Shown here: positions 15,759 to 40,950 of the stretch, piece after piece | Position numbering within the stretch: the first letter of the stretch is position 1 | Layout: each line of letters begins with the position of its first letter | Assembly: GCA_025993875.1 (NCBI GenBank) | Contig: JAMQHH010000013.1 | Location: 95,744 to 159,743, forward strand | Reading direction: 5' to 3' | Source: Candidatus Dojkabacteria bacterium | GTDB taxonomy: Bacteria > Patescibacteriota > Dojkabacteria > J137 | DNA: 64,000 bases | Translations under genes and position numbers: made by a program | Notes under the pieces: model-generated | The model's input: the letters and a program-made list of their open reading frames with translations, nothing else | What the model was told of the DNA's origin: nothing | The model's database searches: none

Positions 15759-17528
15759 TTAAAAAATTTCAAATCTATTTAACAGCTTTCTATTCCCGTC
15801 TATTTGATATTTTAACAAATCGGAATATATCCCTGGTTTTTTAGCAAGTTCTTGCGGGGTACCAATGCTTTCTATTTTATTGTTGTTAACCACTATAACT
15901 TTTGTTGCATTCTGAATTGTTGAGAATCTGTGAGCAATTATTATTACAAGCTTGTCTTTAATTAGATTTTCTATTGCTTGCGATACCTCAATTTCGGATT
16001 TAGAATCCAGGCTTGAAGTTGCTTCATCTAAAATTAAGATTGGAGCATCCTTATAAATTGCACGTGCTATTTGTATTCTTTGCCTTTGACCCCCCGATAG
16101 CTTTACTCCTCTTTCACCTATTTCGGAATAAATCTGTTTTGGCAGATTTTCAACAAAAGCCCAAGCATTAGCTTTTTTTAATGCCTTAATGCAACGGGAC
16201 TCGTCTGGGATAGCCCCATAACAAACATTTTCAAAAACAGTAGTCGAAAAAAGTTCATTTTCCTGAAAAACTAATGAAATATTACTTCTAATATATTGTT
16301 CGGACAACTGGCTATAAGGTTTATTATTTAAAAAAATCTCTCCGGTTGCCGGATCGTAAAGCTTTAAAATTAAATTTGCTATAGTTGTTTTACCCGCTCC
16401 ACTTGGGCCAACAAGAGCAACCATCTGATTTTTTTCAATGCTAAAATTTAAATCTGATAATAGCTCCTTCCCTTCATTATACTTAAAAGAAACATCTTTA
16501 AATTCGATAACTGGATTGTCTACTAACCTAACATTAGCATCTTTTTTTCTAAAGTCTTCTGTTGCCTCAACAGATAATATTTCAAAAAATTCTTTCGATC
16601 CCGATTCTGCCATCTGGATCTGTCCTAAAATATAAGACATTCCAAATAAGGGTTCCCGGGCTTTATTGACAAGTTGGATTAAAACGATAACTGTTCCTGC
16701 TGTAATAAGCCCGGAAAAAGCGTTGTAGAAAATTATCACAGTGATAATAAACATAATCAAGTACAAACTTCCCTCTCTTAAAAAATCAAAAATATGGAAT
16801 TCGTTACTTTGTTTATTATAAATTTTATTTATTTCATCTAGATTATTTTCTACCAATTCAAATTCTTTTTGCTCATTTGTAAAACCTTTCACAAGCTTTA
16901 TATTTGAGATCACCTCTTGTATTCTGCCACGAGTCTTATCTTCTATTATATTTTTTTGCTCTTCCTTTTTACCCCATCTTTTTGTAGAAATTGTGCTTAG
17001 AACAAGATAGATAGGGAATATTATAAGCATTAAAATACCAATCCAAAAGTTATAAAACAATAAAATAGCAATTACTATCATCCCTTGTAAAAAAGTTGGG
17101 ATAATAAAATTAGTAAAAACATTAGAAAATCCTTGGATAGATACAATTCCTCTATTTAGTTGATTAACAATTTTTCCCGAAATCTCCGAATCGTAAAATG
17201 ATTGGGATAAATTTAAAGATTGATTATAAAATATAACAGTTAAATGTTTTCTAATTCTTGCTGCAAGAAGGTCGCCAAGCCTTTGAGTAATAGAACGTGA
17301 AAACAAAAATACTATTGTTGTAATAAAAGACACTGCCAATAGTTGCACCAAAGGCTGGTAATTTTTTTGAGTAAGCGATGTTTGTAGTATTACCTCGTCC
17401 AGAATATAGCCGGATAATATCGGAGTTACAATCTCAAAAACCGCCCCCAAAATAGAAAATATAATAATTACAGCCATCAGTGGATGCATTGGTCTGGCAA
17501 GTTTAAGAATTTTAAAAATGTTTTTCAT
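15759..17528 (-). CDS. ABC exporter, fused permease/ATPase (MsbA-like)
   Basis: Six N-terminal TM segments. Walker A LVGPSGAGKTT. ABC signature LSGGQRQRIQIARAIY. Walker B ILILDEATS. Confidence 0.9.
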   Translation of the reverse strand: MKNIFKILKLARPMHPLMAVIIIFSILGAVFEIVTPILSGYILDEVILQTSLTQKNYQPLVQLLAVSFITTIVFLFSRSITQRLGDLLAARIRKHLTVIFYNQSLNLSQSFYDSEISGKIVNQLNRGIVSIQGFSNVFTNFIIPTFLQGMIVIAILLFYNFWIGILMLIIFPIYLVLSTISTKRWGKKEEQKNIIEDKTRGRIQEVISNIKLVKGFTNEQKEFELVENNLDEINKIYNKQSNEFHIFDFLREGSLYLIMFIITVIIFYNAFSGLITAGTVIVLIQLVNKAREPLFGMSYILGQIQMAESGSKEFFEILSVEATEDFRKKDANVRLVDNPVIEFKDVSFKYNEGKELLSDLNFSIEKNQMVALVGPSGAGKTTIANLILKLYDPATGEIFLNNKPYSQLSEQYIRSNISLVFQENELFSTTVFENVCYGAIPDESRCIKALKKANAWAFVENLPKQIYSEIGERGVKLSGGQRQRIQIARAIYKDAPILILDEATSSLDSKSEIEVSQAIENLIKDKLVIIIAHRFSTIQNATKVIVVNNNKIESIGTPQELAKKPGIYSDLLKYQIDGNRKLLNRFEIF

Positions 17529-17782
17529 ATATGGGCATAATTACTTATAGAAAATAATTTAAATACTAAAATATTGGTTTAAGAATATCTGCTAATTATA
17601 ATAACATAGTGGCGTTGTAAATTCTGATGCAGCAATATGTTAAAGGTTATTTAGTGTTTCCTGCCTGCGGCAGTTGGGAAAGGTAGATCTTTATCTTTAC
17701 TCAAAGTGTAGCCGGAGGTATTCTTAGCTTGTCGAATGAATAAAGAACACCCTTTGATTAGTAATCGATGTGCTTTACTACT

Positions 17783-18139
17783 TTAGTAACTTTCTATAAG
17801 TTCAAAGAGGTTTTCGTTTAATTCGGCGGTGATTTCGTCCAGAGATGAAATTGTATTGTCGATATCTTTAAGTATATTTTCTACAGTTAAAAATTTTTGA
17901 TTGTTCTCGTAATTTCTTTTTACAACTGGTGATAAAACTCCAATCACCAAAATTACTACTGTAACCAGTGTCAAATTCTTTACTTTAAATAAAACTCGAA
18001 AAAAAGAATTTACACTTGGTTTAGTTATTTTTTTATAAAGTCTTTCTAGATACAAATCGGAATTTGCATCAAAAGAAGCCGAATTTATTGAATCGATAAT
18101 AAAGTTTTCAAATTGTTTTAAATCTTTTGTATTTCCCAT
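17783..18139 (-). CDS. Putative anti-sigma factor (single-pass membrane protein), translationally coupled to the upstream ECF sigma gene
   Basis: 118 aa. One central TM (LTLVTVVILVIGVLSPVV). 22-nt overlap with the sigma gene. Assignment is from context only. Confidence 0.35.
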   Translation of the reverse strand: MGNTKDLKQFENFIIDSINSASFDANSDLYLERLYKKITKPSVNSFFRVLFKVKNLTLVTVVILVIGVLSPVVKRNYENNQKFLTVENILKDIDNTISSLDEITAELNENLFELIESY

Positions 18140-20670: not shown

Positions 20671-20844
20671 AAATGTTTAAAATTTTTTATTATTAGTATA
20701 GTTTTTATACGATTTAAACTTATCATAATCTCGTATAATATACAAGTTTAGATTTAAATTATGAAAACATATCGCATAAAAACGAGTTATACGACATTTG
20801 AAAAAACAAACAATTTTAAATACTTAGCAATTTAAACTACTAAT

Positions 20845-21222
20845 ATGGGCAGTTTCATAGAAATAAACGACACATTACAAATATCTAAAGAACAAGGTTT
20901 TCCAGAAGTCTTGAATTATGAACAGCATAAAGCAAAGCCATTTACCGCTGATGATTTCAAAGATAAAATTTTTGAGTTCAAAGATAAACCAAAAGTTAGA
21001 ATCTATAAATTACCGCCTGTTCGTAATTTCCTTGTTCAAAATATTGATGGTAAATGGCTTTACTGGGGACTTGTCCATGTCATTGAAGTTGTTCACGACA
21101 ACATTAAGCAGACGACTTCTGGAAAATTCAAAATAATTTACATTTATACTCCCGAAGAAATGAAACATGCCCATAAGATGATAGATAGAAACAAAGATAC
21201 TGATTTTCTAAAAGTAATGTAG
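20845..21222 (+). CDS. Hypothetical protein
   Basis: 125 aa, no recognised motif. Confidence 0.3.
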   Translation: MGSFIEINDTLQISKEQGFPEVLNYEQHKAKPFTADDFKDKIFEFKDKPKVRIYKLPPVRNFLVQNIDGKWLYWGLVHVIEVVHDNIKQTTSGKFKIIYIYTPEEMKHAHKMIDRNKDTDFLKVM

Positions 21223-21491
21223 TTTAAATTGCTAAAATAATAATGAAGTTTGTTTTTTCAAACGCTAAAGGGGACGCTGCGCTTTCGCTTCACTGCGTTA
21301 CGCTCACCCTCGTATAACACAGTATATCTGGTTCGCCCCTCGGCTCGGGGCTCACCCATATTTTGCTCCAACTATTAAAATGATAAAATAAGGATGGAGC
21401 AAAACATCAGATATACTGAAACGTTATGTGTAATCCATTTTTGCCCTTATCTTTAAGAAAGTCTTTTATACTTAACTAATCTTTAATTAGT

Positions 21492-29309: not shown

Positions 29310-29720
29310 CTAGTTTCTAAATATACTTCCACCTTTTTGGCTTTTTCCTTTAACGTCTTGAGACTCATCTTTCATCTCCTTTAAGATGTTTACAAGTTTT
29401 AACTTACGACCGTTATGTTTTACCTCTTCTCTTGAAGTCTCGAGAAGTTCTATTCTAATCATCTCTCTAATTAAATCAAGCCTTTCTTTAGAAGTAGAAA
29501 TTTTTTCTGAAAGCTCGTGGATTGTTTCATCTTCTTTAATTTTCTCTCTAAGTTCTTTCGATTTTTTTGTTAATTTTTCCAGCTCTCTAACTTCTTCTTT
29601 TTGAGCTCTATAGTCTTTTAAATCGTTTCTTAAAGTTCTTATAACACCTTTTAACTTAAAGTACTCCTCTACTTTGTTAAGATTTGGATTTGACAAAAGT
29701 TCATCCTGTGGATTACCCAT
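29310..29720 (-). CDS. Hypothetical coiled-coil protein
   Basis: 136 aa, highly charged heptad-like sequence. Ends 3 nt after the prmC start. Confidence 0.3.
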   Translation of the reverse strand: MGNPQDELLSNPNLNKVEEYFKLKGVIRTLRNDLKDYRAQKEEVRELEKLTKKSKELREKIKEDETIHELSEKISTSKERLDLIREMIRIELLETSREEVKHNGRKLKLVNILKEMKDESQDVKGKSQKGGSIFRN

Positions 29721-29763: not shown

Positions 29764-32700
29764 TTACTGTATTACAATATAATCCCCAATTATATCAGAA
29801 GCTAGGGGTTCTACAAAGTTGACTGTAAATTTTCCTTCTGTTTTTTCTATCCAGTACTGTGGTACTAGAGAATTGAATGTAACAAAAACTTTGCTTGTAG
29901 TATCAAATTCCTCAATTATCACTTCGATTTTATCTAAGCCAGCAGCACCTGCTATCTCTCCACTACTTTTTTCGGTTAAGGCTAACTTTTCGATATAAGC
30001 GCTTGTTGCTTTTAACTCCGCCACATTTAACGATCCATTTATTATCAAAACAGATTCTGATATATTAATTAAATCCGAAATACCAAGGATCTTTGCCTTT
30101 TGCTCCTCTGTAAATTCGTTTCCGGGAATTACAATAGCAGCAAGTTGTGATTTTAATAAATTAATCTCTTCTTGTAAGAGATTAATTTTAGCCTCTATAG
30201 GGTTTAAATCTGTTTTTTCGGTTGGAAGATTATTTCTACTTACCAATACATTTATTATATCCGTACTTTCGGTTTGATCTTCCATTGCAACTCCAAGTGT
30301 TAGATCGCCGGCAAATGCTTTCATACCATGTCCCGGCATATCCGAAACAGTTACAAAATCCCCTCTTTTAATTAAGCCGTTTTGATCGTTTACTTTGGTC
30401 GGTAAAACACCGGATAATCCCACAGGATAAGAACGGGAATTCTTAAAAGGAGTATTTCCCATTACAATTGTCGGATTAGTAGAGATAATTCCTATTGCTT
30501 TATCGTTTTTTGAAGCTGTTTTTGAAATTTGTTTCCAGTCTCCATTAATATTTTCTCCCGAAAGCTTTACAATTTCTCCTCTATATAAACTTTCGGCAGA
30601 AGAAAATGTTTCTGCAATGTCGCAGCCATCTACTCCACCGTCACCGCCATCACTGTCACCACAGGCACCGGTCATTGTAACCGCCCCTGCAATGTTTAAT
30701 GTGCCATCCTCGGTTACTATATCATTAGCGCCTTCTGCCCCACCGTTAGAAAAATATATTCCATTTGTTCCTGTTCTAACAATTTGTAATTCTGTTGTCC
30801 CCGCACCTGCAAGATAAAGACCTACACTGCTACTGGTGGCTCCGGTTACCGAACCTATGTACATTCCATAAGAATTTGTTGCTGCTCCGGAAAGACCTCC
30901 TACGTACACACCGTAATTTGTGTTGGTTCCACCACTAAATGGATCTACATAAACACCTGCCATCATATCTCCCGCTGTTAATCCACCTGCAAAGCTTACG
31001 TAATTTCCTATAACAAATCCGGAAGCTGCACCAGCTCCCATTAACAGCTGCTGCCCAACAAAGTTCCCTGTTAATGTACCTGGGGATAATGAATTATAAA
31101 TTCCAAATCCGTGGGTTCCGCTACCGTTATTCGTAAACTGGTTGTAAATGCCATACATTGTGCTGACTCCATCATTATTAGTAACGTAATTTGTTATTCC
31201 TGCAAAGGTAGATACGCTTCCGTTATTTGTAGAAGAGTTCGAAAGTGTTTCTACAAATCCAAGCGAAGCTGCTACCGGAACGGTAAGCGAATTTCTAACA
31301 GGAAAATAATTTCCTGCAAGGGGAGTGTTAGTGCTACTGTTTATTTCTAAAATAGAATCTGCATATACTCCTGCATCGAAAATTGCTACCCGACTGTTAC
31401 TTGCAGCGATACTTCCATTTAAAACATTTAAAGCCGAGTCGCCTGTGTCCCAGTAAAAATTGGCTGAAGCACCAAAAGAACCGGAGCTATTAAATTGTAT
31501 TTCACTATCATTTCCTGCAGGAGTTCCTCCACCCCCTGCGGCAAGTAAATCAACATTAGTAGACCCGTCATAAAAGTAAAGTTCAGAGCCGTTCCACCAT
31601 AAATCACCCGATACGGGAGCGGATGGATCAAATCCGCTTGGAATTCTTAAGCTGGAAAGTGCAGTTGTGGAAGCACCAAGCCTTGTAAGACCGGCATCGA
31701 CCCATATAGATGCATTAGTGCCGCTTCCTCCGCTGGCTCCTTCAATATATAATCCGTAAGAACTGGATGAACCTGTTCCCACGATCTCACCAAGATAAAC
31801 ACCAAAGTTAGAAACTGTTCCTCCTGAAAGTTCATCAATTTTTACGCCATAAACACCATTGGCAACTGAAAGGGTTGCACCTGCAAAATTAATCTGTGAA
31901 CCAATAAGATCTCCGCTTATTGTTGAGTCCCCTACAGCAAGATAATTACCTACAAAGTTTCCGGAAGCTGTACCAGGAGTTACAGTTGTATAAATTCCGT
32001 ACCCGTTTCCTATTGTCCAGTTATTCAAAACTTCGTTGTAAACACCAAACATAGATGTTACACCACTAATGTTATTCATGTAATTACGAATACCATAATA
32101 ATCCGTAATAATACCCCAATTTGCAGATAAATTATAAATAGAAGCAGCTGTGCCAAGAGTTGCTGATGAATCAATTGTATTATCATTATAAATCGGATAG
32201 AAATTACCAGATGTTGGAACATTAGCTAAACCGTAAATGTTTAAAATTCTTTCGGCATTAGTTGTGCCATCTAAAAGAGATAATCTTCCTGTTTCTGCAA
32301 TAATATTGCCGGTAACATGTAAAGCCTCGGACGGTGTGTTAGTCCCTATCCCTAGCATTGCGTTTCCTAAGCCACTACGTGCAAATGCAAAAAGCTCATC
32401 ACCTGTTCCAGGATCTCTTAAAATAAGCTTTCCGGGCCCAGCAGCGCTACTATCATCTGTTGACTGAAAATACCATTGATTTGCTCCGGAATACGAATTT
32501 TCAAAAAACAATCCTAGTCCATCACCCAGACTTCCTCTTATACTTAACCCTCTGTCACAACATGGACTTCCATCGGTATCTACCACAAGTGTTTTATTCC
32601 CTCCGTTGGTTCCTACCCCCAGCCAGTTATTTGTATTATCCCAAAACAAATCAGAAGAGGCTCCAAAAGATCCGGAATTATTGAATTGAATCTCGCCATT

Positions 32701-34596
32701 GGCTCCCGCAGGGGTTCCTCCGCCTCCGGCCAATAAGTTTACATTACTCGAACCATTGTAGAAATAAAGTTGAGTTCCGTTCCACCACAAATCTCCGGAA
32801 ACCGGTGAGGACGGATCAGTACCTGCTGCAACTCTAACTGACGAATTGGAAGCCGTAGACGGGGCAAGCCTTGTAAGGCCACTATTAACCCACACAGTTG
32901 CATTTTGAGTAGTAGCTCCGCTTGCACCTGCCAGGTATAACCCATAGCTTTCATCTCCTCCCGTTACTGTTGAAACATGTATTCCATAATTTTTAGCTGT
33001 CGCAGGTGTAGTACCTCCTGCTAAATCAAGTTTTAATCCATAGTTAAAGGTGGTTGCATCAAATCCTATGCTGTAACTTGCGCCATACAGGTTAGTCGGT
33101 CTTATTCCCAAACCATAAACATCACTCATTGCAATTTTAGTTCCGTATGCTTCACCGGTAATATCTCCCCCTAAATTGATTGACCCAAGAAGTCCCACAA
33201 CCATACCATCGCTATTTGCAGATGCATACTGATCAACTCGGTAATTAATTCCGCCAAGAGCCGATCCCAGTCCTCCCGAAGTAGCGGTACCTTCCAAATG
33301 TCTTGTCCATAAATAAAGACCTCTTACCCCTTCTTCAGTATTGCCGGTGTTATCTGATCTTCCGTATATTGCTGCTACCTGCCCCTTTTGAGTTAAAGAT
33401 CTGTTATCCGAAACAAAAGAGCCACCAAAGGATCCATATGCAGTACCACCTGTTGTGGCTAAAACAGATCCGCTATAAAAAGTTGAAAATCCATGAATTC
33501 CTGCGGCAGAAGATGTGCTTTCGCCGGTTGATGTATATTCTATTCTTCCTGCTACTCCCCTTAGTTCTCCTGGTGTGTTGGAACTTCCTGTATTAACAAC
33601 CGACCTAATCCCCTGTGTTAAACCTGTACTGTTATTTGTTGCATTTACAAAAACAGGGTATAAATCCCCCGATGTCTGATTATTTGTTGAGTTATCAATT
33701 TTTAAGATTGAGTTTTGCGAAGGGGTGGCGTCCCAAAGTGCTAGCCTTCCGCCTGTACCTGAATTTGTAGAAACAACTACATTGCCACCTGCAACAGAAA
33801 GTAACTCCAATGGTGTTTGCGTTCCAATTCCAATGTTGCCGTTTTCATTAACATTTAATCTAGATACTCCTGCTGTAAAAAAGTCTATTCCGTTAGAGCT
33901 GCTTTGTACGGATTTGGTATTTGAAAAAAATATATCAGTATCGGCAGTTAAATCAATTCTCTGATTTAATGGGCTTAAAGCAAAAGTGTTAGCACCATTT
34001 AAAACAGAGAGGTTTCCGTTTGTCGATACATTAAGCCGCGAAGCTCCATTAAAATTTAATCCTAATATATTTCCATCTCCTCCATATGAATTAACGGAAT
34101 ATGCTGTCTCACCAGTACTGATTGTTGCCGGACCCAAATTTCTTGCTCGTAAAGCAAATGCTTCTGCCGTAATTTTACGCCTTGGTTTAAACTCCTCTTC
34201 AAAACCTCCGCCACAAGTTGCAGTTCCGTCTCCTGCTGTTGTATTAGCATCAAAACAAACCTGTAAATATAGTTCGGAATTTGTCTCGAAAATAGATGAA
34301 GGCATGCTTACATTCTCTCCTAAATTAACACTAATTCCGCCAAGCCTCGAGCCAACTCCCAAAACTGTTTCCGCCCATAAAGGTGTTCCGCCTGTTTTAG
34401 AACTGAAAATTATAAATCTAAAATTATAGCTCCCATCTGTGAGTGCTTCCTGCTTATTATTAATTATAGATGTTTTAAAGTTAATTACCTCATTAGAAGG
34501 AGAAGCCAAAACTCTCGGCGAAAAAAAGAATGTTATCCCTAAAAAGGTTGCTAGAGTTATTATTTTTTTCATATTTTTATACATTAACCTGTGCAA
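29764..34596 (-). CDS. Giant secreted Gly/Ser/Thr/Asn-rich surface protein (1610 aa) with internal repeats and a C-terminal coiled coil
   Basis: Signal peptide (..MKKIITLATFLGITFFFSPRVLA). Two about 70-aa repeat units (..PVSGDLWWNG[T/S][Q/E]LYFY[N/D]GS[S/T]NV[N/D]LLAGGGGTPAG..EIQFN[N/S]SGSFGAS..). Composition typical of beta-helix or fibre-like adhesins. Confidence 0.6.
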   Translation of the reverse strand: MHRLMYKNMKKIITLATFLGITFFFSPRVLASPSNEVINFKTSIINNKQEALTDGSYNFRFIIFSSKTGGTPLWAETVLGVGSRLGGISVNLGENVSMPSSIFETNSELYLQVCFDANTTAGDGTATCGGGFEEEFKPRRKITAEAFALRARNLGPATISTGETAYSVNSYGGDGNILGLNFNGASRLNVSTNGNLSVLNGANTFALSPLNQRIDLTADTDIFFSNTKSVQSSSNGIDFFTAGVSRLNVNENGNIGIGTQTPLELLSVAGGNVVVSTNSGTGGRLALWDATPSQNSILKIDNSTNNQTSGDLYPVFVNATNNSTGLTQGIRSVVNTGSSNTPGELRGVAGRIEYTSTGESTSSAAGIHGFSTFYSGSVLATTGGTAYGSFGGSFVSDNRSLTQKGQVAAIYGRSDNTGNTEEGVRGLYLWTRHLEGTATSGGLGSALGGINYRVDQYASANSDGMVVGLLGSINLGGDITGEAYGTKIAMSDVYGLGIRPTNLYGASYSIGFDATTFNYGLKLDLAGGTTPATAKNYGIHVSTVTGGDESYGLYLAGASGATTQNATVWVNSGLTRLAPSTASNSSVRVAAGTDPSSPVSGDLWWNGTQLYFYNGSSNVNLLAGGGGTPAGANGEIQFNNSGSFGASSDLFWDNTNNWLGVGTNGGNKTLVVDTDGSPCCDRGLSIRGSLGDGLGLFFENSYSGANQWYFQSTDDSSAAGPGKLILRDPGTGDELFAFARSGLGNAMLGIGTNTPSEALHVTGNIIAETGRLSLLDGTTNAERILNIYGLANVPTSGNFYPIYNDNTIDSSATLGTAASIYNLSANWGIITDYYGIRNYMNNISGVTSMFGVYNEVLNNWTIGNGYGIYTTVTPGTASGNFVGNYLAVGDSTISGDLIGSQINFAGATLSVANGVYGVKIDELSGGTVSNFGVYLGEIVGTGSSSSYGLYIEGASGGSGTNASIWVDAGLTRLGASTTALSSLRIPSGFDPSAPVSGDLWWNGSELYFYDGSTNVDLLAAGGGGTPAGNDSEIQFNSSGSFGASANFYWDTGDSALNVLNGSIAASNSRVAIFDAGVYADSILEINSSTNTPLAGNYFPVRNSLTVPVAASLGFVETLSNSSTNNGSVSTFAGITNYVTNNDGVSTMYGIYNQFTNNGSGTHGFGIYNSLSPGTLTGNFVGQQLLMGAGAASGFVIGNYVSFAGGLTAGDMMAGVYVDPFSGGTNTNYGVYVGGLSGAATNSYGMYIGSVTGATSSSVGLYLAGAGTTELQIVRTGTNGIYFSNGGAEGANDIVTEDGTLNIAGAVTMTGACGDSDGGDGGVDGCDIAETFSSAESLYRGEIVKLSGENINGDWKQISKTASKNDKAIGIISTNPTIVMGNTPFKNSRSYPVGLSGVLPTKVNDQNGLIKRGDFVTVSDMPGHGMKAFAGDLTLGVAMEDQTESTDIINVLVSRNNLPTEKTDLNPIEAKINLLQEEINLLKSQLAAIVIPGNEFTEEQKAKILGISDLINISESVLIINGSLNVAELKATSAYIEKLALTEKSSGEIAGAAGLDKIEVIIEEFDTTSKVFVTFNSLVPQYWIEKTEGKFTVNFVEPLASDIIGDYIVIQ

Positions 34597-35785
34597 ATTT
34601 ATTTTCTAAGTTGTTAAATTTTCCTAAAACAGGATCCATTAATATTTTAAAATCAACCCATCCTTCGCTAACTACATTTGTTTCTACCATTTTTAGTTCC
34701 GAATTTACTTTTGGCCTGTTTTGCAAAACAGAGGGAAAACTGTATCCGTTTATATAACAGGATAGATAATATTTACCGGGTTTTAATAAAAACCCAAACC
34801 TTCCGCTTCCGTCTGCAATCTGAGTGTCCTGTAAAATATTTTTATCACTATAAAGCCTAACTATTGCACCTGCGATTCTTAAATTTGTTGAACTATCAAT
34901 AATTAATCCCCAGTTATTTTTACGGCTTAGAATGTATTTGGCAAACAAATAAGTGCCAATCATAACAATATAAAAAATTAGAAGAAGAGATTCCAGTGTT
35001 CCTTTATTAAAATAGTAGGCTATTAGGGATAAAATTAAGCCAATAATTGAAACTACAAGGCTATTTTTGTACGCCCATATTCTAAAATCTTTAAAAACTC
35101 TTGCAATAAAATTCTGAGCGTAATTATATGGAAGTGTGCTTAGTCCAATATCTTCGGCAAAAGATTCTTCTCTTCCGATAATTTCGATATCTTTAATAAA
35201 TGTCTCGTAGTTGGGGTGCATTACTTGTATTCTGTATCTTCCTCCTGATAGTGGAAGAGAATACCTTCCATCCAGGTCGGAAATTTTTTGTCCGACAAAT
35301 TTAGTTGTTTGATGTTGGTACGCTTTTACAATGGCCATCGAAACAGGTTTTTTTGTTCTAAAATCGTAAATTATTCCGGAGTATCTTTTCTTTTTACTTA
35401 AAACAGCACTTAAAAATAATATTAGAAGATTTGGTGATAATAATAACGGTAAAAGTGTAAGCAATAATGGTAAAGCCGGTAAAGCCGAAACAAGTGAAAA
35501 ATTATCCGAAATAGCCGATAAAATTGCAGTTGTTTGCTCTGCTTTTTCTAAATTTTCGGGGGTAAGTTCTCCAATAGAATTTTGGAGCTGGTTAATTTGA
35601 TTTAGCACGCTCTCATCTACATTTGTTGTTTGATTGTTAACTGTTACAGCGGTATCCGAAAATTCGTAGTATAAAGTGTCTTCAGTAGAACTTTTACTTG
35701 TTTCTTCTGATTGAGCAACAACACTATAATTAAAAAAAAGTACAAAAAGAAACATAATAGCAGGTAATAATGCTCTTTTTTTCAT
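34577..35785 (-). CDS. Membrane protein with two carboxypeptidase-regulatory-like (Ig-like) modules, translationally coupled to the giant protein gene
   Basis: 402 aa. Signal peptide and internal TM segments. DLDGRYSLPL...RYRIQV and ADGSGRFGF..KPGKYYL resemble CarboxypepD_reg-type beta-sandwich motifs. Its stop overlaps the downstream giant ORF start. Confidence 0.4.
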   Translation of the reverse strand: MKKRALLPAIMFLFVLFFNYSVVAQSEETSKSSTEDTLYYEFSDTAVTVNNQTTNVDESVLNQINQLQNSIGELTPENLEKAEQTTAILSAISDNFSLVSALPALPLLLTLLPLLLSPNLLILFLSAVLSKKKRYSGIIYDFRTKKPVSMAIVKAYQHQTTKFVGQKISDLDGRYSLPLSGGRYRIQVMHPNYETFIKDIEIIGREESFAEDIGLSTLPYNYAQNFIARVFKDFRIWAYKNSLVVSIIGLILSLIAYYFNKGTLESLLLIFYIVMIGTYLFAKYILSRKNNWGLIIDSSTNLRIAGAIVRLYSDKNILQDTQIADGSGRFGFLLKPGKYYLSCYINGYSFPSVLQNRPKVNSELKMVETNVVSEGWVDFKILMDPVLGKFNNLENKFAQVNV

Positions 35786-35979: not shown

Positions 35980-36231
35980 ATGAAATTTTCACAAAAGTTA
36001 AAACAGTTGAGAAAGCAAAAGGGCCTTTCCCAAACTGATCTTGCGAAGGGTTGTAAAGTCCCTTTTTATACTATTGTGGCACTCGAAAATGATAGAAGCA
36101 ATGTACCTTTAATTACTACAGTGCTTAAGTTTTCCAAATATTTTAAAATCTCTGTAGAGGAATTAATAAAAGGGGTAAAGTTTGTTTCCTCAACCGGTGT
36201 TGTTTCAAAAAAGAGTTCTAAGAGAAAATAG
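35980..36231 (+). CDS. XRE-family HTH transcriptional regulator
   Basis: LKQLRKQKGLSQTDLAKGCKVPFYTIVALENDRSNVPLITTVLKFSKYFKISVEELI. Cro/C1-type HTH. Confidence 0.7.
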   Translation: MKFSQKLKQLRKQKGLSQTDLAKGCKVPFYTIVALENDRSNVPLITTVLKFSKYFKISVEELIKGVKFVSSTGVVSKKSSKRK

Positions 36232-39909: not shown

Positions 39910-40950
39910 TTATTCAACAAAAACAATAAAAGGTTTTATTAATTTAAAAAATCTCTCTGTTATTTTAACACTCTTACTTAATTTTTTCTTTTCTTCTTGC
40001 GACCCATATATTATAACCAAATTTGTGTTTCCCGGGCTGTTTTTTATCTCTCTAGCAAGATTTTCCAAAAATTCTCTATTGGTGTTACCTGTTATATCTA
40101 TTAAAATTTCCATCTCTTCTATTTCGGCAAGAGACAAAGCTTCAATTTCGGTTATATTCAGCTTCTTTTTTATCTTTTCGATATCTTCCTCGGCGGCCAA
40201 AGTTTCGGGGTAAATTTCATTTTCAACTAAAAGTTTTCTAATCTCAATATTATTATGAATATGTTCGGCTTTAATTTTATCTTTTCCCATAAAAGATTTC
40301 TCCTTCGTTTTGTAGGTTGTCATCTCGGTTGCAAGCTGTTTGGCGGTAAGCGCAATTGTTGGTAATACATCTGCCAGGGGTTTACTTGGGTCAAGTTTAT
40401 ACTTTTCTTTTAGTTCGCGTGTTCTGGTTTTAAAAAGTGCCTCATCTCCACTGGAACGAATTTCTGCGATTCCTTTATTATCTACTTTATGTTCACTTAG
40501 AACGCCCGAAAAAACTTTTTCAGCTTCTCTTAACCTTTCGCGCGCTTTTATTCTTTCCATATTTTTTTCGTACTCCTCTTTAAGCTCCTGTTTTCGAGTT
40601 TGTGTCGCAAAATAGGATTGTGCCAGGGCAATTTCTTGTTTTGCAGGATCACCGTTTTGAGCTATAAGGTAGCACGCGTAGCGGGATAAAACGTAATCTT
40701 TTAGTTTAAGTTCTATTTCACCATGACGGTTTTTGCTTTTCTTGATTTTGTGAGAATGCGCAAAAGCTAGGGAAGATTCAAAGGCACTATTATCCGATGC
40801 CTTTTTTGCTTTGTGGATAAGTTTATCAAACTCACGCCACCCTTTGTAGCCAAGGACATTCATAAGTTCCCTTGCACTCCAGAACTCGTTTCCTTCTTTA
40901 TCAATATGCTTAATTTCTTCCAAACGGTTTGAGGTAGTTTTTATGGTCAT
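39910..40950 (-). CDS. Bro-N/DinD-like (DNA-damage-inducible protein D family) N-terminal domain fused to a long charged coiled-coil region
   Basis: N-terminus ..EEIKHIDKEGNEFWSARELMNVLGYKGWREFDKLIHKAKKA.. closely resembles DinD/Bro-N family openers. 346 aa. Ends 3 nt before pheS. Confidence 0.45.
   Translation of the reverse strand: MTIKTTSNRLEEIKHIDKEGNEFWSARELMNVLGYKGWREFDKLIHKAKKASDNSAFESSLAFAHSHKIKKSKNRHGEIELKLKDYVLSRYACYLIAQNGDPAKQEIALAQSYFATQTRKQELKEEYEKNMERIKARERLREAEKVFSGVLSEHKVDNKGIAEIRSSGDEALFKTRTRELKEKYKLDPSKPLADVLPTIALTAKQLATEMTTYKTKEKSFMGKDKIKAEHIHNNIEIRKLLVENEIYPETLAAEEDIEKIKKKLNITEIEALSLAEIEEMEILIDITGNTNREFLENLAREIKNSPGNTNLVIIYGSQEEKKKLSKSVKITERFFKLIKPFIVFVE

Follow-up and report, generated by a model that had tools for sequence, protein, structure and literature searches.

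The gene pair and its junction

The window analysed here is the whole stretch of 64,000 nucleotides (nt) from Candidatus Dojkabacteria contig JAMQHH010000013.1, and our subject is a pair of adjoining genes on its minus strand: a gene for a protein of 1610 amino acids (aa), which we call the giant, and upstream of it a gene for a 402-aa membrane protein, which we call the partner. A first-pass annotation, made from the sequence alone, had described the giant as a secreted fibre-like or S-layer-like protein, rich in Gly, Ser, Thr and Asn, with the partner, translationally coupled to it, as its possible anchor or export factor. The two open reading frames (ORFs) were found where it had placed them, on the minus strand and with the lengths that it gave.

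29764..34596, minus strand: giant fibre gene (ORF; 1610 aa from a TTG start, 1606 aa from the first ATG at 34584)
34577..35785, minus strand: partner gene (ORF of 402 aa, CarboxypepD_reg matches, AlphaFold2 (AF2) model)
34570..34596, minus strand: gene junction, with the partner stop codon (TAA) and three candidate starts of the fibre gene (reading of the DNA)

A database protein of 1606 aa, P0001, was 100% identical to the giant and another, P0002, was 85% identical. The arrangement of the junction depends on which start is used: the TTG gives a 20-nt overlap with the partner gene, the first ATG, which is the start matching P0001, shortens the overlap to 8 nt (ATGTATAA), and the second ATG (MKKIITL...) falls 4 nt past the partner stop. 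The proposed overlap of stop and start therefore holds for the TTG or the first ATG and is lost with the second ATG. Among relatives, the junction between the two genes ranged from a 4-nt overlap up to a 214-nt gap, so that translational coupling was not borne out as a conserved property; the tight linkage of the partner and fibre genes is conserved, the overlap is not. A scan for promoters and terminators gave counts no higher than in shuffled sequence.

Gly, Ser, Thr and Asn together made up 43% of the giant (G 14.2%, S 10.7%, T 9.1%, N 8.6%), in agreement with the richness first noted. The protein is acidic (isoelectric point, pI, 4.3-4.4) and has three Cys pairs. Its signal peptide, which we assigned by inspection of the sequence as Sec-type, has a layout that recurs in the giant's homologues, and this part of the earlier description also stood. 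The domain that follows it is conserved and is the proposed docking domain.

34501..34596, minus strand: signal peptide region, residues 1-32 (inspection: MKK, then IITLATFLGITFFF, then SPRVLA, followed by SP)
34072..34500, minus strand: conserved N-terminal domain (N-domain), residues 33-175, with Cys114 and Cys128 (orthologue comparison; A5 hidden Markov model, HMM)

A C-terminal autochaperone-like domain with a predicted cleavage site

Behind its long shaft the giant carries a domain, overlooked in the first-pass annotation, that links it to phage tail fibres and tailspikes.

30217..30621, minus strand: gp12/Peptidase_G2-like intramolecular chaperone (IMC) domain, residues ~1326-1460 (profile matches: PDB, PHROGs, Pfam, viral ORFs)
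30610..30621, minus strand: D1326-I-A-E1329, with autocleavage predicted between C1325 and D1326 (alignment to 3gqh, motif conservation)

A profile of the IMC domain built from 36 sequences (A3) matched, in the PDB, the cleaved D4 autochaperone 3gqh, whose chain starts with DFAEYF (E=1.2e-6), full-length phi29 gp12 (6qz9, residues 686-745, E=2e-6), 3suc, which has DFAQ at the motif position (E=3.1e-5), and 28nb, the 'chaperon domain D4' of the tailspike Dpo31 (E=4.9e-5). D1326-IAE of the giant aligned with the DFAE that opens the 3gqh chain, D1326 corresponding to D692 of gp12 and E1329 to E695. Mature gp12 (gp12*) consists of residues 1-691 (PMC6542822), and its C-terminal domain is removed once folded (PMC3357383). 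Across the 36 aligned sequences the D was invariant and the A and E were each at least 90% conserved; the domain opens with D-[LIVFY]-A-E, and D-x-x-E stood at the expected position in 125 of 141 matches. The Pfam model of this family, PF11962 (Peptidase_G2), was matched at E<0.01 by the domains of 17 of 36 relatives (best 4.3e-7), and among PHROGs the giant was matched by phrog_6427 (8.7e-7) and by phrog_4775, a pre-neck appendage protein (profile positions 694-759; 0.0028). When used as a single sequence against the PDB, the C-terminal 360 aa gave chance matches only, and an NCBIfam scan of the giant returned nothing. Peptidase_S74 (PF13884) had no match in the giant, while a control fibre in locus L012 matched it at 6.4e-16.

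The same domain was found in viral sequences. A pattern scan of IMG/VR for ALAGRVPVKV returned 83 DNA stretches, of which 80 loci were examined, and 76 of these encoded the IMC domain, at the end of long ORFs. In the 40 matches listed, which show the motif YADLAEYYEGD, E ranged from 1e-25 to 1e-29 and the domain stopped 1-15 residues before the end of ORFs of up to 3577 aa.

Judged by these profile matches, the giant's domain is remotely homologous to the autochaperone of phi29 gp12, its catalytic motif lining up with that of gp12, and self-cleavage between C1325 and D1326 is predicted. A loop between Cys1312 and Cys1325 lies just before this site and is kept in the closest homologues. Cleavage at the site would yield a mature chain comprising residues 33-1325 (132 kDa), along with a C-terminal fragment of 31 kDa. 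The presence of an IMC domain with D-x-A-E suggests that the giant is a phage tail-fibre-like or tailspike-like fibre, and by analogy with these proteins it is probably trimeric. Together with the signal peptide, this phage-type chaperone domain agrees with the original description of the giant as a secreted, fibre-like protein.

Two further elements were recognized after the IMC domain.

30133..30201, minus strand: short coiled coil, residues 1466-1488, three heptads (heptad reading; AF2 helix at low confidence)
29767..29964, minus strand: C-terminal beta-sandwich, residues ~1545-1610 (AF2, predicted local distance difference test score, pLDDT, 72-85)

The hydrophobic residues of the coiled coil (IEAKINLLQEEINLLKSQLAAI) are spaced 4-3-4-3-4-3. 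This is the C-terminal coiled coil of the first-pass annotation: its three heptads are there, with the helix modelled at low confidence, and its place is after the IMC domain, within the fragment predicted to be cut off. A second helix comes between it and the beta-sandwich, which was the sole confident part of the C-terminal AF2 model and which Foldseek matched weakly to the C-terminal beta-sandwiches of phage tailspikes and depolymerases. Residues 1466-1610 matched 18 proteins.

Some observations on related fibres touch this end of the protein. Many Patescibacteria proteins, including P0037, P0045, P0052 and P0073, have two tandem D-x-A-E domains, often in the middle of the protein, which is unexpected for a domain that is removed from the C-terminus. 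Locus L012 encodes a Peptidase_S74-type fibre (16127-17905, minus strand; PF13884, E=6.4e-16) 5 kb from a partner-like gene, and its C-terminal region resembles, by eye, the C-terminal beta-sandwich of the giant. If this resemblance is real, G2-type and S74-type fibres of Patescibacteria-type bacteria would share a C-terminal end piece.

A repetitive and partly hypervariable shaft

The region between the N-domain and the IMC domain forms the Gly/Ser/Thr/Asn-rich shaft.

30697..34071, minus strand: shaft, residues 176-1300, about three modules of ~400 aa (self-alignment, motif spacing)
32530..33042, minus strand: repeat copy 1, residues 519-689, with PVSGDLWWNG..LYFY..EIQFN.. (self-alignment; phrog_3304 match)
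31333..31851, minus strand: repeat copy 2, residues 916-1088 (self-alignment)
31597..32196, minus strand: hypervariable segment, residues 801-1000 (comparison with P0002)

Residues 519-689 aligned with residues 916-1088 at 49% identity across 177 aa (E=5e-40), the PVSGDLWWNG motif occurring at residues 598 and 994. Thus the two copies claimed in the first-pass annotation are real, and their length is 177 aa rather than the ~70 aa that it gave. A weaker self-similarity between residues 272-411 and 1057-1216 indicates that the module is ~400 aa long and present in about three copies. Rung-like [YF]G[IV]Y motifs, 14-18 aa apart, end each shaft module (at 519-551, 916-947 and 1213-1243), and LG[IV]GT motifs occur at residues 255, 659 and 748. 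While phrog_3304 (L-shaped tail fiber) matched residues 544-613 (E=2e-4), the profile of the shaft repeat had no match in the PDB or Pfam, and the giant had no Pfam beta-helix match. The rung-like motifs and the phrog_3304 match are sequence-level signs of what may be a trimeric beta-helical or fibrous shaft. The first-pass annotation had named a match of the repeats to a well-described adhesin family as an outcome that would speak against it; by sequence, the repeats matched no Pfam or PDB family.

Word-indexed protein searches were nearly blind to this protein, returning 2 matches with the whole giant and 2 with its C-terminal 356 aa, and the breadth of the fibre family was visible only through an exhaustive HMMER search. 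Queried with residues 411-1610, this search returned 3430 representative proteins at E<=1e-3, of which 324 reached E<=1e-10. Two pieces of the giant were common to many proteins, the shaft repeat (~565-680) and the ~135-aa domain at 1326-1460. The relatives that have names belong to Candidatus Dojkabacteria, Uhrbacteria or 'Patescibacteria group', and all are annotated as 'hypothetical'.

Compared with P0002, residues 801-1000 showed 32-74% identity and a 15-residue gap, while elsewhere the identity was mostly 84-100%. We looked inside the giant gene for DNA repeats of at least 40 nt, as the trace of a diversity-generating retroelement that might underlie the hypervariable segment, and found none. 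By eye, the P0002 version of residues 801-1000 is similar to the third module, a hint that modules have recombined with one another or undergone gene conversion.

The membrane partner and its co-occurrence with fibre genes

The partner was resolved into the following parts, which come after its signal peptide.

35501..35713, minus strand: ectodomain, residues 25-95, acidic, with YYE[FL]xD, the proposed fibre-binding part (charge, conserved motif)
35393..35500, minus strand: long proline-containing hydrophobic segment, residues 96-131 (36 aa), followed by KKKR (hydrophobicity)
35141..35380, minus strand: beta-sandwich 1, residues 136-215, CarboxypepD_reg (Pfam, AF2, Foldseek)
34925..35080, minus strand: transmembrane (TM) helical hairpin, residues 236-287 (AF2, hydrophobicity)
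34631..34909, minus strand: beta-sandwich 2, residues 293-385 (Pfam, AF2, Foldseek)

PF13620 (CarboxypepD_reg) matched the partner in two stretches (47.5 bits, cutoff 32.3, E=2.4e-12), and in the AF2 model two beta-sandwiches (137-215 and 293-385) flank the helical hairpin, the block pLDDT of the domains being ~75-85. The earlier view of a 402-aa membrane protein with two CarboxypepD_reg modules is thereby supported. Foldseek returned only generic transthyretin-like and Ig-like folds, among them the transthyretin-like domains of carboxypeptidase D (root-mean-square deviation ~2 Å), and no enzymatic or known chaperone domain was found in the partner with Pfam, NCBIfam or Foldseek. The ectodomain contains 2 Lys and Arg and 13 Asp and Glu residues and is predicted to lie outside the cell; AF2 confidence was low there.

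Partner homologues adjoin fibre genes in 10 loci besides the window. A homologue of like layout adjoins the fibre gene in L001/L002, L008, L004, L013, L015, L016, L017 and L018, and in L009 a partner homologue lies downstream of the fibre gene. Three partner homologues, P0004 (70%), P0005 (41%) and P0006 (36%, from a Dojkabacteria metagenome-assembled genome, MAG), are directly followed by a homologue of the giant that is cut by the contig end, and P0007 (27%) has directly before it, 1 nt away, the gene for a 504-aa protein with the same N-terminal domain as the giant. P0008 and P0009 (26% partner homologues) had no adjacent fibre. The loci of P0014, P0106, P0070, P0073, P0016 and P0013 were reached independently, from fibre homologues found in the exhaustive search. 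The fibres P0014 (on a 1.14-Mb contig), P0106, P0070 and P0073 have a partner homologue directly upstream, with 30-39% identity over residues 124-388 and a matching hydrophobic layout, and in two of these four loci stop and start overlap. The HMM finds no N-domain in the fibres P0013 and P0016, which carry a signal-anchor helix at the N-terminus in its place, and no partner adjoins P0013. Wherever the fibre does carry the N-domain, in 9 distinct loci out of 9, a partner homologue (27-75% identity) lies next to it. The first-pass annotation had named a partner that never co-occurs with giant-protein genes as the outcome that would speak against the pairing; since the partner is co-conserved with the fibre genes of relatives, the opposite was found.

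In 6 of 7 orthologue pairs no part of the fibre was better kept than the N-domain (35-69% identity, against 22-45% for the shaft). It occurs directly after the signal peptide in ~30 of 158 collected proteins (A5 HMM), and the A5 profile had no match in Pfam or the PDB. Among the orthologue pairs the membrane module of the partner (30-75%) and the N-domain diverge in parallel, and in most pairs both are better kept than the shaft. Phage receptor-binding proteins show the same pattern, with a conserved N-terminus that attaches to the particle and a distal part that varies. Alignment to close partner sequences located, among GTDB genomes, only the known Dojkabacteria MAG, and in addition one metagenome contig.

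More distant partner-like proteins were also seen. In L005 (9465-11593) and L012 (8400-10876) the long ectodomain of these proteins (530 and 630 aa) looks cohesin-like by eye, and a small upstream gene for a secreted dockerin protein overlaps the partner-like start with its stop by 1-4 nt. Dockerin_1 scored 24.2 bits in the L005 neighbour (cutoff 22.9) and 19.7 bits in the L012 neighbour; cohesin had no Pfam match in either partner-like membrane protein. By analogy, this suggests that the partner-type membrane module may in general display proteins encoded beside it, in a scaffold or anchor role. In L014 (4592-13891) the self-anchored fibre P0013 lies between a Peptidase_M23 gene and an Aminotran_5 gene with a large CarboxypepD_reg/PEGA gene, and in L005 (8120-14637) the dockerin protein and the partner-like gene stand at the place of P0013, which looks like a syntenic swap of surface-display cassettes. 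A small single-TM protein, whose C-terminal domain is conserved (..L...N..FYKNA..GD..), is encoded directly beside fibre genes in L017 (8779-9171), L013 (11058-11786) and L012 (14613-16124, three copies); it is absent from the window and could be a third member of certain fibre loci.

A proposed mechanism and its alternatives

We think it rather probable that the two genes form a module of a Patescibacteria-type cell, in which a tail-fibre-like secreted surface fibre is served by the partner as anchor or assembly platform. The fibre would be exported through Sec, and three chains would fold outside the membrane into a trimer nucleated by the C-terminal chaperone domain, as in gp12. Next, with its conserved D-x-A-E, the chaperone domain would cleave the polypeptide between C1325 and D1326, giving a mature fibre of ~132 kDa per chain and a 31-kDa fragment with the IMC domain, the coiled coil and the beta-sandwich. 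The N-domain of the fibre would dock on the ectodomain of the partner, which is the best candidate for the anchor, and the variable shaft would project outward and bind a host cell or a surface. The fibre may in this way have a role in host attachment.

The giant is cell-encoded, not viral, as indicated by its housekeeping flanks, by the synteny with a relative, by the signal peptide and by the three Cys pairs, which fit an extracytoplasmic protein. On one side lie pyrG and prmC and on the other a helix-turn-helix (HTH) gene, tRNA-Arg, a response regulator gene and pheT/pheS; locus L001 has identical synteny around its fibre locus, and no phage genes flank the giant in the window. It could be argued that a prophage or defective phage has left a tail-fibre remnant that lies beside an unrelated membrane-protein gene by chance, as viral tail fibres typically have a C-terminal domain of this kind, the PHROG matches are to tail and connector families, and a tRNA-Arg gene is only 0.5 kb away. 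We rejected a prophage origin as extremely improbable, given the housekeeping flanks, the Sec signal peptide, a tblastn search with the N-domain and the IMC domain that found nothing in INPHARED (50,697 phage genomes), and the maintenance of the gene pair in at least 10 other loci amid differing neighbours. A lattice-forming wall protein such as an S-layer, rather than a discrete fibre, would suit a large, acidic, Sec-exported and Thr/Ser/Asn-rich protein of a monoderm-type lineage, and the first-pass annotation had raised this option. Here too the candidate was rejected, and we regard it as very unlikely: neither SLH nor any other S-layer-related family was matched in the Pfam and NCBIfam scans, and both the chaperone domain and the motifs of tail-fibre type speak for a trimeric fibre instead.

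Several results weigh against the favoured model, and they bear on its two central steps, the cleavage and the docking. With regard to the chaperone domain, PF11962 scored 15.1 bits on the whole giant (residues 1280-1385) and 17.1 bits on the isolated domain, both under the gathering cutoff of 25, and AF2, run on the last 356 aa with an alignment of 4 sequences, gave a poor model (pLDDT 43), so that the link to gp12 rests on profile-to-sequence matches. Whereas gp12 and the viral ORFs have the IMC domain at their C-terminus, the giant runs on for ~145 residues beyond it, and in many relatives the domain is internal or tandem, which fits poorly with a chaperone that is cut off. Release of the gp12 chaperone reportedly needs ATP (Xiang et al. 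2009), and there is no ATP outside the cell. Alternatively, self-cleavage by the D-x-A-E domain may have been lost or may never be used here, and the protein would stay intact, with the coiled coil and the beta-sandwich as the distal tip of the fibre. In favour of this, besides the internal and tandem copies and the lack of external ATP, the 145 residues after the domain are conserved (18 proteins match 1466-1610), and the beta-sandwich is weakly like the capping domains retained in mature tailspikes such as Sf6 and Pam1. We consider this rather unlikely, as the catalytic positions of gp12 are kept in cellular and viral copies alike (D invariant, E at least 90%) and S74-type chaperones operate on exported Bdellovibrio fibres (PMC10769870).

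With regard to the partner, a single membrane crossing by the long hydrophobic segment would, under the positive-inside rule, leave both beta-sandwiches on the cytoplasmic side; cytoplasmic CarboxypepD_reg domains are unusual, and only ~70 poorly modelled residues would be left outside to bind the fibre. If the segment forms a hairpin instead, the whole partner would be outside the cell. Moreover, a partner-like gene adjoins the fibre P0016 even though this fibre carries a TM anchor itself, and the loci were found through homology to one of the two genes, so that the co-occurrence count is not unbiased. The partner might then serve in assembly, export or quality control, or in signalling across the membrane, with the mature fibre released or attached to the cell wall or S-layer by other means, and the tight or overlapping junction of the genes in three loci is common for a chaperone and its substrate. 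We see this as unlikely, because enzymatic and known chaperone domains are absent from the partner and because its presence follows the N-domain of the fibre, corresponding to the proximal end by which phage fibres attach, and not the IMC domain or the shaft.

Other features around the locus

A 136-aa Lys/Glu-rich ORF (29310-29720, minus strand) follows the giant after 43 nt in the same orientation; it is probably a coiled-coil protein and has no signal peptide and no family match. Divergent from the partner, ~190 nt upstream of it, is a gene of the XRE-type HTH family (35980-36231, plus strand; HTH_19, E=5.6e-11), which may be a local regulator. Its position is kept in the 70%-identity relative (L001 9584-9820; L002 580-816) and it was not seen at the more distant loci. 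A 346-aa ORF (39910-40950, minus strand) adjoins pheS, and an ORF of equal length at the equivalent position of L001 (2651-3691) has a Bro-N domain, which is often phage-associated. Finally, a pair of inverted repeats of 44 nt (20797-21262), 80% complementary and 378 nt apart, lies in AT-rich sequence where no ORF of at least 150 aa is listed.

Comparison with known systems and significance

The giant was the sole ORF of the window to match the HMMs of the N-domain, the shaft repeat and the IMC domain, and a literature search found no paper describing such fibres or the partner in Patescibacteria. It resembles phi29 gp12 (Peptidase_G2, PF11962 in MEROPS/Pfam) in the D-x-A-E that opens the domain at the cleavage boundary (D692-F-A-E695 in gp12) and in the long fibre or spike body ahead of the chaperone, with the same expected logic of trimer folding and subsequent removal of the chaperone. 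It differs from gp12 in that it is cell-encoded and Sec-exported, its shaft matches no pectate-lyase or beta-helix family found, an extra ~145 residues of coiled coil and beta-sandwich follow the domain, its Pfam score is under the threshold, and, in place of a virion-binding arm, it has at its N-terminus a separate domain that goes with a membrane protein. The S74 fibres of the endosialidase and T5 pb1 type (PF13884) follow a like strategy of a self-cleaving C-terminal trimerisation chaperone; the giant has no S74 domain and carries the D/E motif of G2 chemistry, which differs from the Ser-Lys chemistry of S74. LG[IV]GT..P motifs like those in the giant's shaft occur in S74 fibres too. For the partner family only, the distant partner-like proteins beside dockerin-protein genes offer an analogy to cohesin-dockerin scaffolds, although the partner in the window has an ectodomain of only 70 residues and its fibre has no dockerin.

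The closest cellular analogue is the set of mosaic adhesive trimer (MAT) fibres of Bdellovibrio bacteriovorus, for which we draw on passages of the report that describes them (PMC10769870). Like the giant, MAT fibres are chromosomally encoded, exported and phage-tail-fibre-like, have ~1000 aa or more and belong to bacteria living on other cells (PMC10769870). In each case the distal parts vary while an invariant N-terminal domain is presumed to bind the surface of the producing cell, and these passages present the MAT N-terminal domain as presumably bound to a surface element that was left unidentified (PMC10769870). Some MAT fibres have an autoproteolytic intramolecular chaperone, which is S74-type there and G2-type in the giant (PMC10769870). 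The MAT N-domain is said there to have no PDB homologue (PMC10769870), and the A5 profile of the giant's N-domain had none either. What sets the giant's system apart is the conserved adjacent membrane partner, of which the passages on MAT fibres make no mention (PMC10769870), together with its shaft and N-domain, which are Patescibacteria-specific and covered by no Pfam model, and its organism, which is of the monoderm-type Patescibacteria, unlike Bdellovibrio.

A bolder and quite unlikely extension is that the partner family is a dedicated membrane receptor for the fibre N-domain, that is, the 'surface element' of the MAT passages (PMC10769870). If so, the cytoplasmic beta-sandwiches could couple the loading of the fibre or the binding of a target to the cell interior, and Patescibacteria would carry a modular system of fibre display and sensing made from phage parts.

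The analysis defines three domains that have no Pfam model above threshold, namely the N-domain, the ~130-aa shaft repeat and the membrane module of the partner, and models of these could improve annotation, as the named relatives are all 'hypothetical'. How ultrasmall Patescibacteria recognize and hold their hosts is largely unknown, and in the one Saccharibacteria species screened, predicted adhesin surface proteins were among the essential genes (PMC11665869). The locus is a concrete and widespread candidate for this function: a fibre that appears to be built from phage tail-fibre parts, with a precisely predicted maturation site and building blocks shared with the 3430 representative proteins. 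With its conserved partner gene it would offer an answer, open to test, to the question of what holds such fibres on the cell, which the MAT study explicitly leaves open (PMC10769870).

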